From contig CP075497.1 of NCBI GenBank assembly GCA_021613535.1, positions 8,221,488 through 8,285,487 of the forward strand: DNA of 64,000 nt, in the 5' to 3' direction. Of the stretch, positions 19,343 through 25,431 are shown one piece after another. The first letter of the stretch is position 1, and every line of letters starts with the position of its first letter. Source of the stretch: Adineta vaga (Eukaryota; Animalia; Rotifera). The translations under genes and the position numbers were made by a program. A model generated the notes under the pieces. That model had not been told where the DNA came from and did not search any database. It worked only from the letters and a program-made list of their open reading frames with translations.

Positions 19343-20651
19343 ATGGCTCAAAATATTGAATTGATAACATTGGGTTCGAAAAAACTAGCAAATGAAACAT
19401 CAGAATGTATACCAGTAGCTCATAAAAATATGTTAACAGTGGATCAACTTCATGATTATTATCGTCAGATACCTGATTCGAATTTCTTTGCTGTACTTGT
19501 ATTTGATTCGAGCAACTCAATTCTTATGTTAATTTTGACAGGAATAGAACGAAGAAAAGATCAGTTAATTGGCATTTTTATTTGTGCAAATTCAGATGAC
19601 ACATTGAATTACACTACAACAAATATATATCATATTTCTAAGACACTCATTGCTTATAAAATAAATTCAACTATTTCACGTTTTCTTGAATGTGAATGTA
19701 TAAAACAATTCGAGAGATATCGATTGGAATCTGGTATGGCTCTTGAAGAACAACGAAGACATTTAATGAAACACTTAGGCACAAATAAACAGGTACATTT
19801 CAATCAATTTTTCAATTATATCCAAAATAACCATATTCTTTGTATATATTTAGTTCAAAGCTTGTCATATATTATTAATTCCATTGAATACAACACCAAA
19901 AGCCTTGCATACAGCTAAACAACGTCTGAAAAACATTTGTTCGTAATCAATAATGATTTTACTTATTATTAAATCGATTTTCTATTTTAGGTTATGATTT
20001 ATATGGTAGAGAATATACTTTTCGAATTCATACGCTTTATAATTATATACCTGAAGATGAATCAAATTCTGAGAATTCAAATTATGAAGATTATTTAAAA
20101 AGATATTATGGAGATGATATTTGTTGTTCTATTATGGATTTATCAGTAATGGTCTTTTGTCTCGTTGGCAATTTATCAACAATCGATAATCAATGGAGTC
20201 AAAAATTAATTGCTAGTCATGTAGATACTGATGAAAATCGTTTAGCAGAATATTTTGGAAAGTTGACATTCATTATTGATCAACCTGTACCAAATCAATA
20301 TTACCAAGATCTGCTTCCTCGATTTGGTGCAACATGGCAGATACCAAGTACTATACCTACACTATTGAATAATCTCAAAGATGATATTTATTTTCAAACT
20401 GTGTTACAATCGATAAGTGGTATACTCGAGAATCGTGAAATGGCTGCAAATTATAAAATAAAACAACGATCGTTAAATATTTCAAATCATATGGTCGCAT
20501 TTGGTTTGAACGTATGTATACATATATATATATGATATTTTTATGAACTAGATTGTTCTTTTATGTATAGGAACAGCCCATTCAACAAGCACAAAATAGT
20601 CGTGAAGAAAAAGAAATTGTAGGAGATATTGAAAGCATGATTTTATCGTGA
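19343..20651 (+). CDS. Hypothetical protein. The N-terminal region resembles the alpha/beta repeat unit seen in the neighbouring ART-domain gene
   Basis: ORF block 19343-19918 (IELITLGSKKLANE...FFAVLVFDSSN...) plus exons 19991-20521 and 20571-20651, the latter pair joined by a GT-AG intron. The junction between the first block and 19991 could not be put in frame, so there may be an unrecognised micro-exon or two separate genes. No known domain was recognised. Confidence 0.4.
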
Positions 20652-21072
20652 AAGTAGAATATTTTTGTACATCTCGTTTGAGATATAAAATCTTTTTTCA
20701 TTTTTTATTCGCATCTATATAGAATTGATGCAATTTGACTAATGTGAATAAACTATAATCAAAAGTGTGATGTTTTGTTCTCATCGGATGAATCATTATC
20801 TTTGAATTGTTTTGTTTTGCATCTGATTTACTTAGAGAAATACACACGTGTATACACTTGGTTTTTTCCCCGCAACTAAAACTAGAGAACAGAAAAAAAA
20901 TCTATTCGAAGAAATATTTATTATCGAGTACGACTTTTTTTTCATTACTTTAGCACAAAAGAAAAGCATAGAAATGTGCATTTTGAAAACGTATTAGTGC
21001 TGTGCTATCTCATGCAAAAAGAAATACTTCCTTGTTTATTTGTTTTCTATTTTAGATCATTTTTACTTGACT

Positions 21073-24000
21073 ATGACAGAAATTGAACCAAAAGTTATCA
21101 TTTTAGCTAATATTGATACTTTTGAATCATTTGAAATTTTATTACCTATCCCATTATTAATAGTTTATAATGAACATTCACTTATTACCAAGATTAGTAA
21201 TAGATCAAATCAACTCAATTCAAGTTTACAACGATTTTTTATAATTTGTCTGAAAACAATTGAAACCGATGAAGATGAAATCTTTAATAAAATAGAAGAA
21301 AATCCTGAGGTTCTTACAGTCTTTCATATTTGGAATGATGAATCAATGCCAATATTTAAATATACAAAAGCGTATTATATTCAAAAAGAATTAATTACGA
21401 TAGCTGTGACATGTAAAACGATTGAATTTTTGAAAAACGAAGCTGACATACAAACGAAATTAAATCAACTGACTTTGACAAAACTTTATATGAGAAAAGC
21501 TGAAAAAATTAAAGAATGGTTAATGTCAAATATGAGAGTATGTTTATCGATTGAATTCACTTTCTAACTTTTGATTTTTTTTCTTTATAATAGGCTGAAC
21601 CATGTCATATTCTTCTAATACCTCTCAATACTAACGTATCGAATTTATTGGGTTGTATTCAATATTTAAAACAACATTGTAACAATATGAAATAATTTTC
21701 ATGATTTGTAATCTTTCTTGTTCTCTTCATTTAGGTACTAGCTTAGGTTATCCATCAACCAGCATACGTATACTTGATGAATATATTCCAAAAAGTGAAC
21801 TATACGATAAATTACCTTATGGAAAAACTATTTTCGAATATGAACATCCAGAGGTTATATGTGCTTGGTTACGAGACTTATCGCCGATACGTATGTATCT
21901 ATACGGTAATGAACAGTTGGTTGCAAGTGAATGGAGTAAACAAATGATTTTATACGAAGCTGATCATATTGGTAGAGAGATAGTTAATGATGATGATTGG
22001 CATACATTTATTGAAAATGACGCAATTGACGATGATATTAAATGGAATTTTTATGCTAATCATGCTCAAACATGGAAAATAAAAAGAATGACACCAATTA
22101 AAGTATGCAATTTAAACGAAAATCTTCGTTTTCGATCAGCTCTTCGACGTGCACATATTACATATCATACACGAAGATCAACTGTTACAGCACAAATCTA
22201 TCATTGGTTTGATCAATGTTCACAATTTAATTATATTCCACACGAAGTATGTATCAAAAAGATTTCATTCGAAGAAACATCGAATTTTTTCAATCATTTA
22301 TTTAAGTTTCAATTACAACGACACAATAGGCTAACACCACGTTTAAAAAATACAAATGCAGTACAGATCAGCATTCCCTTGTCAGAATTCAATGACAATG
22401 TACAATTAAAACTTTCACCATCTATTTATGAGAAAGATAAAACTCATTATTCTTTACCTTATTTATTCAATCAAACCTGTGAATATATCGCTTATAATTC
22501 AAGTCTATATGATCAAACCTATATATGGCTTGATGATGTTCTTTACTCAATTGAAGAACGTTTTCATGGTGTAATTCATCCGAATCAATGGATACATTTT
22601 ACTAAAGTGAATGAATGTCAAGAATTTATTCAAAATCAACAATTACAATATAATTCAAACATATATTTAATAGCAAAAGATTCACTTGCTGAACAACTAT
22701 TTACATTTGATCATATATCAAGAATTTCTAGTGCTTATATATATTCAAATCAAGATAATTTATTCATTAAGTGGATTAGAAGTTTTCAAGTAATAAGAGG
22801 CGTCTATGCAAATTTTGATGAACTCTATGACAAATTATGTGTTGATATGGTACGCAGCATGAAAAGAAATTCATGTCCATATCAAGAACAAGTATTTTCT
22901 AAAAGATTTCGTAGTTTAATTTTTAAATATATTGATAATTTGTTTTATTTTCTAGGAATATGAAAGAATATCACCAATTAGTTTTTTTGAATTAGTAGGT
23001 GAAGGTCTTCAACGTTATCGAGGTTTAACTGATCTACTATTGAAATTACCACGAAAATCAGATGCTAAACGAGAATTAATTGATGAACTTCGTCGAACAT
23101 CCAATGAAATCAATTTATCAACTGATAAGATCGATGAATTCGAACGAAATTATTCTTCAGATGCAGCTATTCAATGGTATACACGAGAGAGTTTTGTATA
23201 TCGTCTTGTCAATCGTGTCTTGCGCTCTGATAATTTGGATTGGATAATTAAATTTCGATTACTTATAACGGATTTATATGAAGCATTAGCTGAACTTCAT
23301 AAACAAATCGATTCGGATAGCTACTTAATGCAAACAACAACGACATTCTATCGAGGACAATTACTATCGTCAAATGAACTCAAACAATTAAAACAAAATA
23401 TTGGATGTTATATATCAATCAATGCATTCTTTTCGACTTCATTATCACTTGATATTGCATTATCATTTGTTGGAGGATATGCATTAGAAGATGTAACAGG
23501 ATTCAAGCCAGTTCTATTTAGCATTGAAGTTGATCCAAGAGTTAAAGATACTCGACCATTTGCAGAAATTAAATCGTATTCAAATTATAAAGATGAAGAT
23601 GAAGTTCTATTTGCTCTTGGTTCAATATTTCGTATAGAAAAAATTGATATGCTCTCTGTTAATGATAATATCTTAGTTATACATTTGAAATTGATTGATG
23701 AAAATGAATTACCACAAACTTCATTAGATATCTTGAAATATATATCTGATCAACAACTTTCTGGTATATTGAAAATATTTCTTTTATTTTGAATTTCTTT
23801 GTTTGTTTTTCAGATCCAATTTATGCATTTCTTGGTTTAACATCATTATTTCAAACGGATGAACGATCGAAACGTATTAAATCAATATTTGAAGAAGCTG
23901 ATGTTCGATTTTTTCATGATACAGACGATTTCGAACATTATACAAAATCGAGCCAAGTCATTCAATCTTTCGTTATTTTGATCAGTAATCAAGCATATAT

Positions 24001-24722: not shown

Positions 24723-24849
24723 TACAATATATATATTTTTTGAATCGTAATTAAATCTAGACATTGTTCATCGTTGCTTCTTTTCTCTGTATTTATAATT
24801 CTTATTCGTTTTTATTTCAGATTAGACGATCTACAATATATATTTATTG

Positions 24850-25431
24850 ATGGCGACGAAACATTTTGTACTTATTGATAGTACGCCAGAATCTCGAGCT
24901 TTAGCCTTTGCAAACGACTCTAAATTTCAATCATGGTTACGTACATATACTGATGTATCTGAAGCATTACAATTTCTATCAACAATTACATTACCATATA
25001 GTATACAAATATTTTTAGCAAGAGACAATATTTATAGTCCTGGTCTACCTTCAGAAACGAATGGTCGAAGTCTTACCTTACTTCAAACTCTTTGTGGCTT
25101 GCAAGCAATTCATCACATTAGTGTCTTTAGTCCAGATATTAGTGAGAGTGTCATCATACAAATTCGTAGTCTGTTTTCTAACCAGCAAATAATAAAAGAA
25201 ATTCTTTCTGTAAATGAACTGCATAGTTATTTGTGTTGTGAAGGTATAAATTATTTCCAGCAACAAATTACTCATCGTACGACTACACAAGAATTTCATC
25301 TTATACGTAATTTTCGACGAAATAGAGCGGAATTGATACGCGGTACCTATCAAGATCATACTGAACAAGGACAACACCTGCAAGTTCTAGAAGATGAATA
25401 CAGTGATAAACGAGGTGTACAACAGTCTTGA
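24850..25431 (+). CDS. Hypothetical protein, a possible paralogous alpha/beta repeat unit adjacent to the ART gene
   Basis: Continuous ORF from the ATG at 24850 (MATKHFVLIDSTPESRALAFANDSKF...ALQFLSTITLPYSIQIFLARDN...). Its pattern matches the units of the upstream gene: a hydrophobic strand, then S/D, then helix, then a hydrophobic strand ending in D/N. It is preceded by a strong acceptor (TTTATTTCAG at about 24826), so it could instead be a further exon of a transcript reading through from upstream. Confidence 0.4.
   Translation: MATKHFVLIDSTPESRALAFANDSKFQSWLRTYTDVSEALQFLSTITLPYSIQIFLARDNIYSPGLPSETNGRSLTLLQTLCGLQAIHHISVFSPDISESVIIQIRSLFSNQQIIKEILSVNELHSYLCCEGINYFQQQITHRTTTQEFHLIRNFRRNRAELIRGTYQDHTEQGQHLQVLEDEYSDKRGVQQS

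Follow-up and report, generated by a model that had tools for sequence, protein, structure and literature searches.

In the bdelloid rotifer Adineta vaga, gene g2 encodes an ADP-ribosyltransferase (ART) domain embedded among five non-catalytic alpha/beta modules in two sequence groups (Ua and Ub; the Uc type), and the neighbouring gene g3 most likely contains a further Uc-type module. Together with g1, these are three same-strand (+) genes at positions 19343-25431 of the window, by which we mean the whole 64,000-nucleotide stretch of DNA that was analysed. We give about even chances to the reading that, in this three-gene bdelloid locus, g2 is a regulated ART equipped with pseudo-receiver modules and g3 its small partner protein. 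The preliminary description of this DNA had assumed a flatworm host; the organism is a bdelloid rotifer instead.

The open reading frames at this locus are exons, with short GT..AG introns between them, and give the splice models listed in Table 1. The g3 protein matched its A. vaga annotation with 100% identity. The g2 model, with the domain order Ua-Ub-linker-Uc-ART-Ud-Ue-helix, aligned from end to end with full-length orthologues found in 6 bdelloid species (48-54% identity, 100% coverage), and a chimeric public gene model was put right by this analysis.

Table 1. Genes, predicted domains and other features of the locus (window coordinates; aa, residues of the g2 protein unless a gene is meant)
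Feature	Position	Strand	Description
g1	19343..20651	+	330 aa; exons 19343-19733, 19991-20511, 20571-20651; splice model
g2	21073..24722	+	1086 aa; 7 exons; splice model
g2 exons	21073-21537, 21594-21678, 21735-22246, 22307-22849, 22956-23763, 23814-24164, 24226-24722	+
Ua	21073..21537	+	aa 1-155; N-terminal alpha/beta domain, then two long helices
Ub	21594..22222	+	aa 156-345; larger alpha/beta domain with inserts; intron 21679-21734 inside
Uc	22496..22849	+	aa 418-535; 'IWLD' domain, (beta-alpha)5, immediately N-terminal of ART
ART domain, R-S-E type	22968..23750	+	aa 540-800; YRGQ, FSTS and EDE motifs
Ud	23816..24163	+	aa 806-921; three beta-alpha units, then two helices
Ue	24228..24647	+	aa 923-1062; Uc-type domain C-terminal of ART
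C-terminal helix of g2	24648..24722	+	aa 1063-1086 plus stop; helix H1057-1088 in the orthologue model
g2-g3 spacer	24723..24849	+	127 nt; polypyrimidine tract and 'cag' at 24812-24822, 27 nt before the g3 ATG
g3	24850..25431	+	193 aa; single exon; annotated I4U23_029851

By its sequence, the centre of g2 is an R-S-E-type mono-ADP-ribosyltransferase domain with intact catalytic motifs. It matched the Pfam families PF03496 (ADPrib_exo_Tox; E-value 4.4e-7, 29.9 bits for a cutoff of 23.4) and PF01129 (ART; E-value 4e-4), which represent C3/VIP2-type exoenzymes and vertebrate ecto-ARTs respectively, and R668, S695/T696 and E749/D750/E751 were invariant across the orthologues. The domain thus resembles R-S-E mono-ADP-ribosyltransferases in passing the PF03496 gathering score and in keeping the R, S-T-S and E-x-E motifs. 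Unlike the exoenzymes and ecto-ARTs, g2 shows in its predicted sequence neither an obvious N-terminal signal peptide nor an obvious domain for toxin delivery, and unlike known R-S-E ARTs its catalytic domain sits among receiver-like modules. It is very far from any solved ART, the best match being the Vis toxin (E-value 0.5).

The hub of the repeat family is Uc, for which we retrieved 33 representative relatives. Using a profile built from 39 Uc relatives and composition-matched shuffles as controls (n=500), Ue scored 18.7 bits against the Uc-only HMM, a score reached by 0/500 shuffles, and the Uc profile detected it in all g2 orthologues (n=6 full-length; i-E-values 1e-6 to 5e-4). Family-to-family comparison with hhalign aligned Ue to Uc over 94 in-register columns (89%, P 2e-6), with a Smith-Waterman z of 3.8 and a reciprocal test against the Uc family of 13/40. 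At the level of sequence, Uc and Ue are homologous, on either side of the ART. Ud is probably a degenerate or truncated domain of the same type: it scored 10.3-11.4 bits against the Uc HMM (0/500 shuffles), its hhalign alignment to the Uc family covered 40 columns and b2-a2-b3 only (P 0.04; strands are denoted b and helices a), and its reciprocal test gave 2/40. When all six frames of the window (561 ORF pieces) were scanned with the Uc HMM, the Ue exon ranked 2nd and the Ud exon 3rd (E-value 0.019). The suggestion that a shared module flanks the ART was therefore borne out, with a homologous alpha/beta unit before (Uc) and after it (Ue, probably Ud).

The body of g3 (aa 1 to about 140, 24850-25269), which is followed by a helical tail, is probably a stand-alone Uc-type domain. 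The g3 family aligned to the Uc family over 106 in-register columns (hhalign 59%, P 9e-5), with a Uc-g3 Smith-Waterman z of 3.6 and a reciprocal test of 6/40. Against a single Uc HMM g3 scored 4.9-8.0 bits, the 4.9-bit score being reached by 8/500 shuffles, and it was borderline in the whole-window scan (E-value 0.13). A duplication of the Ue exon was considered as the origin of g3 but found no support (hhalign g3 against Ue, P 0.24). The homologue search with g3 returned itself plus one 77% relative only, and that with g1 returned no relatives; additional g1 and g3 relatives were taken from syntenic loci. In this way, g3 orthologues were located in 4 other species, each time as the gene directly downstream of g2. 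Synteny of the pair thus extends over five bdelloid species, and the gene order Senescence / g2 / g3 / Rad4 is kept in Adineta and Rotaria.

These comparisons bear on the preliminary description, which had listed five segments of g1, g2 exons 1, 6 and 7, and g3 as copies of one ~100-residue unit. All the peptides it quoted are present (IELITLGS and FFAVLVFDSSN in g1; KVIILANID and LLIVYNEH in g2 exon 1; FVILISNQ in exon 6; AVLILQSDD in exon 7; HFVLIDST and IQIFLARDN in g3). They do not amount to a recurring literal motif, runs of at least 5 hydrophobic residues being no commoner than in shuffles (4 observed versus 2.5+/-1.3 in g1, 9 versus 8.1+/-2.5 in g2, 1 versus 1.0 in g3). Nor is it supported that the five segments are one repeat: 9 of the 10 Smith-Waterman pairs were at shuffle level, and the sole pair above it, between the N-terminal segment of g1 and Ua (z 2.6, 4/300), scored so because of whole-gene paralogy. 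By the description's own standard of alignments better than shuffled controls, the list therefore falls. What stands is a shared module that runs through Uc, a domain absent from that list (Uc-Ue, Uc-g3), and leaves out the g1 and Ua segments; its units measure about 115-140 aa.

The same figures frame the reading that there is no repeat at all, with unrelated alpha/beta stretches looking alike because an AT-rich genome gives them an I/L/F/N/K-rich composition and because the beta-alpha-beta pattern is generic. The unenriched motif and the nine shuffle-level pairs speak for it, as does the noise-level score of Ua, the g1 N-terminus and Ub against the Uc profile. We hold it to be quite unlikely, since the Uc-Ue match is reproducible and in register in g2 and six full-length orthologues and lies above 500/500 shuffles, the Ue and Ud exons stand out in the window scan, and the g3 family aligns to the Uc family over its 106 in-register columns.

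The modules Ua and Ub appear to form a group separate by sequence from the Uc-type modules. Ua and the g1 N-terminus were each at noise level against the Uc family by HMM, hhalign and reciprocal tests, and Ub was at noise level against the Uc-only HMM. A single local hint in Ub (a3-b4-a4, P 8e-4 and 0.03) was followed as a possible extra Uc-type copy, which we rejected. Ub is the best-conserved part of g2, with dense invariant columns at aa 156-345. In an AlphaFold2 (AF2) model of a g2 orthologue, Ua has the secondary structure b1-a1-b2-a2-b3-a3-b4-b5-a5 (pLDDT about 70-80). Both modules have counterparts in g1, of which aa 102-270 match g2 161-321 (blastp E-value 4e-10, hhalign 96.5%, Smith-Waterman z 15.6) and the N-terminus shares 118 in-register columns with the Ua family (P 0.006); the N-terminal segments of g1 and g2 are thus related to each other because of gene paralogy. 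The ART domain is absent from g1, and A. ricciae alone yielded a g1 orthologue (about 40% identity). From these alignments, g1 is a younger, Adineta-specific duplicate of the N-terminal third of g2 (Ua+Ub) alone. Recent local duplication, apart from that of g1, is not supported: Uc, Ud, Ue and g3 predate the Adineta/Rotaria split, having been present in the common ancestor.

The AF2 model available for fold assignment was that of the orthologue P0003, not of the window protein, and had a mean pLDDT of 50, with Ud, Ue and the ART below about 60. Uc showed a (beta-alpha)5 pattern (pLDDT 60-80), element spacing was near-identical in Ua, Uc and Ue, and the (beta-alpha)5 flavodoxin-like fold of this moderate-confidence orthologue model superposed on solved receivers. 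The closest structural match of the modules is CheY-like receiver domains, which is probably their fold. A Foldseek search of the full-length orthologue model against the PDB gave no match at E<=1e-3. Sequence comparisons did not recover the relationship: Pfam Response_reg (PF00072) had no match at E<=1 in all exons nor at E<=0.1 in 10 relatives, and a profile of 28 Uc domains found nothing relevant among PDB sequences (one spurious PPR match). For g3 the AF2 model was unusable (pLDDT 38).

Receiver hallmarks were compared with the modules. The phospho-acceptor Asp expected where b3 ends is missing in Uc (family consensus IFLIxS(G), IYLIAKDS in g2 Uc). Among the modules, the conserved Lys after b5 is lacking, with IRGVY and ILHGQF there instead, and b4 ends in C/S (YIYC, YLCS, VFSP), a position that receivers fill with Thr/Ser. 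With Ser-Gly in place of the phospho-acceptor Asp and no conserved Lys, the Uc family differs from receivers and is therefore read as pseudo-receivers. They recall REC/CheY-like domains, especially phosphorylation-independent or pseudo-receivers (RitR, HP1043-type), to which the modules have no sequence-level relationship; unlike two-component receivers, they sit in an animal ART context. Ue (LILQSDD) and g3 (LARD) do have an Asp near the end of b3, of uncertain exact placement. Could g3, perhaps with Ue, be a true phospho-accepting receiver, in a His-Asp-type relay controlling the ART? The Ue Asp after b3 would fit, and g3 has an Asp after b1 (LID), one after b3 (LARD) and a Ser after b4 (SPN/D), with D10, D59 and S94 conserved in six g3 sequences. 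This is extremely improbable in our view, as the Lys after b5 is missing, D59 lies about 3 residues past the predicted strand end in a protein whose model cannot be used, and a Response_reg match is absent; animals, to our knowledge, generally lack His-Asp phosphorelays.

Another option is that the Uc-type modules are ligand-binding Rossmann/flavodoxin-like sensors (for a nucleotide, NAD or ADP-ribose) that relay a small-molecule signal to the ART rather than solely mediating protein contacts. Their conserved residues do lie at strand C-terminal ends, the ligand-binding place of such folds, with IWLD following b1, YIYC at b4 and, in many family members, S-G-x-L-G following b3. We consider this unlikely, given that g2 Uc itself has AKDSLAE for SGxLG, that Ue and g3 also lack SGxLG, and that there were zero matches to nucleotide-binding families.

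The preliminary description had favoured TIR-like or other NAD-processing or nucleotide-signalling modules that, together with the ART, make up an immune or conflict system. TIR is likewise a flavodoxin-like three-layer fold, conflict systems typically link such modules to an NAD-using enzyme, and Uc-ART-TPR architectures exist in bdelloids. No match to TIR profiles or structures was obtained, and Macro and SEFIR were absent from the Pfam scans (all exons, 10 relatives) and from the fold-search lists; of the folds put forward, the CheY-like one gave the best structural match and TIR, SEFIR and macro were not matched. With one full-length relative per species, syntenic and about 50% identical, the locus bears little resemblance to an immune expansion in rapid diversification. 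We regard this interpretation as very improbable.

We retain pseudo-receiver modules around a regulated ART. By analogy with phosphorylation-independent receivers, the Uc-type modules could target or gate the g2 ART, working as switches through interaction, dimerisation or allostery. The genes g2 and g3, always on the same strand and about 90-155 nt apart, are probably co-expressed, and g3 may modulate the putative ART activity of g2 by binding to one of its homologous modules. A stronger version is doubtful: that the 'IWLD' domains are an undescribed, bdelloid-expanded receiver-like switch family dedicated to ARTs, with g2 and g3 a conserved, co-transcribed enzyme-regulator pair in which g3 docks on its homologous module in g2. 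If true, it would amount to a module for ADP-ribosylation signalling in an animal that follows the logic of bacterial receivers. The locus has so far not revealed a new biochemical principle; g2 and its conserved neighbour g3 make a simple testable pair.

The unit had been called unclassified, rightly: the Uc-type unit matched no family in Pfam, NCBIfam or PADLOC and no PDB sequence, PADLOC and NCBIfam gave zero matches for every unit, and literature searches on ART or TPR proteins of bdelloids and rotifers turned up no account of the Uc-type domain. The 'IWLD' domain thus appears to be an uncatalogued (beta-alpha)5 domain of roughly 115 aa, and this ART-adjacent domain is now defined as a distinct family, in none of the domain libraries searched. 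It also lies N-terminal of an ART in several other bdelloid proteins, and of ART+TPR in one. In these Uc-ART(-TPR) proteins, among them A0A814A7V3 of A. ricciae, which bears the name NAD(P)(+)--arginine ADP-ribosyltransferase, Uc is directly N-terminal of the ART, as in g2; g2 differs in lacking TPRs and in adding Ua, Ub, the post-ART Ud and Ue, and g3 as a conserved, stand-alone partner gene. Bdelloid rotifers have many uncharacterised ART-containing proteins, and the Uc family offers a handle on their possible regulation.

We also inspected the g2-g3 spacer. An in-frame TAG (24823-24825) directly follows its acceptor-like site, and g3 is therefore not a coding exon of g2; a role as coding or alternative last exon was rejected. 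The polypyrimidine/'cag' feature is also found in four other species, with g2-g3 spacers of 88-155 nt, and is possibly a trans-splice or 5'UTR acceptor.

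The plus-strand ORFs between 19343 and 25431 of the window (G+C ~30%) are exons linked by short GT..AG introns, and we assembled them by hand from ORFs and splice sites into three genes, g1, g2 and g3. A protein search retrieved full-length g2 relatives from Rotaria sordida, R. socialis, R. magnacalcarata, Rotaria sp. Silwood1, Adineta steineri and A. ricciae (48-54% identity, 93-100% coverage), with which the g2 model aligns end to end. An extra in-frame 60-nt intron (GAA/gtatgt...tttaag/TTT) without stop codon, within a 420-aa ORF, was hidden from ORF reading, and only the orthologue alignment exposed it. 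The g3 protein matches A. vaga I4U23_029851 at 100% identity; the flatworm origin implied by the preliminary description was thus mistaken, the source being the bdelloid rotifer Adineta vaga. The public model I4U23_029850 (record P0002, 919 aa) seems to be a chimera in which g1 is fused to the N-terminal half of g2; it keeps intronic sequence and ends inside the intron after 22849, so that it lacks the ADP-ribosyltransferase (ART) domain and both C-terminal modules found in all orthologues.

Coordinates of the genes and associated features (window positions unless a locus is named; L001-L004, syntenic loci of four other bdelloid species)
Feature	Position	Strand	Length	Basis
g1	19343-19733, 19991-20511, 20571-20651	+	330 aa	hand-built splice model
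g2	21073-21537, 21594-21678, 21735-22246, 22307-22849, 22956-23763, 23814-24164, 24226-24722	+	1086 aa	hand-built splice model
g3	24850-25431 (one exon)	+	193 aa	hand-built model
Extra g2 intron	22247-22306	+	60 nt	orthologue alignment
I4U23_029850	19343-22963		919 aa	public model
g2-g3 spacer site, window	24812-24849
g2-g3 spacer site, L001	10885-10999
g2-g3 spacer site, L002	16503-16643
g2-g3 spacer site, L003	12011-12098
g2-g3 spacer site, L004	12886-13040
Rad4/XPC homologue	27060-28259			Pfam Rad4
Lys/Ser-rich ORF	26309-26803
Minus-strand ORF	17805-18392	-

The g2 protein is arranged as Ua-Ub-linker-Uc-ART-Ud-Ue, where Ua to Ue are alpha/beta segments. Five segments (the N-terminal segment of g1, g1N, together with Ua, Ud, Ue and g3) had been described as copies of one repeat; the peptides quoted for them were all found, and runs of at least 5 hydrophobic residues were equally frequent in shuffles of the same proteins, so the literal pattern is not unusual. 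We scored all pairs among g1N, g1C (the C-terminal segment of g1), Ua (g2 1-155), Ub (156-345), Uc (418-536), ART, Ud (803-921), Ue (922-1062) and g3 by Smith-Waterman with 300 shuffles per pair. Among the five, only g1N-Ua rose above noise, and marginally (z 2.6); the other 9 pairs were at noise level. The claim of one repeat in all five thus fails by the refuting condition given in the preliminary description, alignments no better than shuffled controls. The strongest pairs fell outside this set (g1C-Ub, z 15.6; Uc-Ue, z 3.8; Uc-g3, z 3.6), and Uc was missing from the list of described segments. The helix motif reported there, [AS]-h-x-F-L, maps to helix a2 in the Uc-type domain (eC..fI / EALQFL / SCISFL).

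We ran an HMM built from 39 Uc-type domain sequences against each segment and 500 composition-matched shuffles of it. Ue scored 18.7 bits and Ud 10.3 bits (shuffle maximum 6.6), g3 reached 4.9 bits, a score matched by 8/500 shuffles, and Ua, g1N, Ub and ART were at noise. The same HMM recognised Ue in register in g2 and every orthologue (i-E 1e-6 to 5e-4 per sequence) and, in a scan of all 561 ORF pieces obtained from the 64-kb window in six frames, ranked the Uc exon first, Ue second and Ud third. Profile-profile comparison with the Uc family gave Prob 89% and P 2e-6 for Ue, P 0.04 for Ud (limited to b2-a2-b3), and noise for Ua, Ub, g1 and ART. For g3, with orthologues collected from the syntenic loci, it gave Prob 59% and P 9e-5 over 106 columns across the whole domain, with aligned blocks FVLID-FIWLD, SWLRTYTDVSEALQFL-qW..F..v.eC..fI, IQIFLA-IfLI, IHHISVFSP-I..iYIYc and QIRSLF-IRGVy. 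Reciprocally, 13/40 Uc-family domains exceeded the 99th percentile of 800 shuffles with the Ue HMM, 6/40 with g3, 2/40 with Ud and 0/40 with Ua (~0.4 expected by chance). These comparisons place Uc at the centre of a real repeat family, with Ue as its homologue; g3 is probably homologous to Uc, and Ud is plausibly a degenerate copy. The proposal of a shared alpha/beta module around the ART domain therefore holds for Uc and Ue, homologous Uc-type modules lying on both sides of it, and finds no support for Ua and g1N, whose sequences show no detectable relation to that of Uc.

The Ub stretch at g2 aa 213-250 (window ~21824-21937), SPIRMYLYGNEQLVASEW, is similar to the Uc-family signature at a3-b4-a4 (I..iYIYc......W; hhalign P 8e-4 and 0.03 in two tests), and because of this resemblance Ub may be a Uc-type domain that has diverged strongly and contains inserts. 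By alignment, g1 is paralogous to the N-terminal third of g2 (blastp 4e-10 across 169 residues; hhalign 96.5%), and g1N is collinear with the Ua family across 118 columns (P 0.006). Only A. ricciae has a g1 orthologue upstream of g2 (~40% identity); none is present at the loci of A. steineri, R. sordida or R. socialis, which makes g1 an Adineta-lineage partial gene duplicate.

A HMMER search with Uc alone as query, covering all 1.84 billion representatives, returned 33 relatives with the consensus hIWLDe...W.fF....C..fI.....IFLI.SG.LG..L......I...YIYC......W...f..IRGVY.....L.eQ. The named members are all bdelloid (A. ricciae, A. steineri, Didymodactylos), and several carry the Uc domain immediately N-terminal of an ART domain, one also with TPRs and another with a GNAT domain. 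The family is absent from all domain libraries searched, and we found no paper describing it. In the relative P0035 (581 aa), Ub-Uc-ART precedes a GNAT acetyltransferase domain (Pfam Acetyltransf_1, E 2e-7); this reflects either an unusual fusion of ART with acetyltransferase or a fusion introduced by the gene model.

For the fold, we used a model of the A. steineri g2 orthologue, predicted with its six relatives (mean pLDDT 50; Ua ~70-80, Uc 60-80, Ud and Ue 40-65, ART 30-50). In this model Ua, Uc and Ue share b1-a1-b2-a2-b3-a3-b4-(a4)-b5-a5 at nearly equal element spacing, which presumably resembles that of CheY. Ud keeps the first three beta-alpha units and then has two helices, whereas Ub, also alpha/beta, is larger and contains inserts. 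On moderate structural evidence, a CheY-like (flavodoxin-like) fold is the best structural match and is assigned to at least one unit, the superposed unit being unspecified, and probably to several. Foldseek returned no significant match, only weak generic Rossmann/flavodoxin-like ones. Receiver chemistry is not conserved: in the Uc family b3 ends in Ser-Gly instead of Asp and b5 is not followed by a Lys, so its phospho-acceptor is lost. Ue (SDD) and g3 (LARD) have a nearby Asp of uncertain placement and no Lys. No family in Pfam, NCBIfam, PADLOC or PDB sequences matched any unit. Less likely readings are chance resemblance between units, small-molecule-binding sensors, TIR-like NAD-processing immune modules and genuine phospho-receivers; one relative per species, conserved synteny and ~50% identity argue against a fast-evolving immune expansion at the g2 locus.

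In Pfam, the exon at 22956-23763 hits both ADPrib_exo_Tox (E 4.4e-7; 29.9 bits against a cutoff of 23.4) and ART (E 4e-4). Its motifs R (YRGQ), S-T-S (FSTS) and E-x-E (EDE) are unchanged in all orthologues and predict an intact-looking R-S-E type ART, with only remote similarity to solved ART structures. The Uc-type modules would act as pseudo-receivers, interaction or allosteric elements for this ART, and g3 could be a partner docking on a homologous g2 module. Pseudo-receivers and regulated mono-ARTs are already known; new here is that an array of receiver-like modules and a separate homologous partner accompany an ART, a variation on known themes that introduces no new principle.

The gene order Senescence-domain gene (minus strand), g2, g3, Rad4/XPC is kept in A. 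steineri and A. ricciae. It is also kept in R. socialis, with RpL29 upstream and the Senescence gene not called, and in R. sordida, with no upstream genes called within the flank. Downstream of g3, the window carries a Rad4/XPC homologue (E 2e-14), of which the Lys/Ser-rich ORF may be the first exon; at the position of the Senescence-domain gene lies a minus-strand exon with no Pfam match. In all five species g2 and g3 share a strand, with g3 starting 88-155 nt downstream of g2. Each spacer ends with a polypyrimidine tract and (c/t)ag 18-30 nt before the start codon of g3, and no exon lies in frame upstream. Because an in-frame TAG comes directly after this acceptor-like site in the window, g3 cannot be a coding exon of g2. 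The site may instead act as acceptor for the 5'UTR or for a spliced leader, and trans-splicing has been reported in bdelloids, which makes co-transcription of g2 and g3 plausible and would fit an operon-like gene pair.
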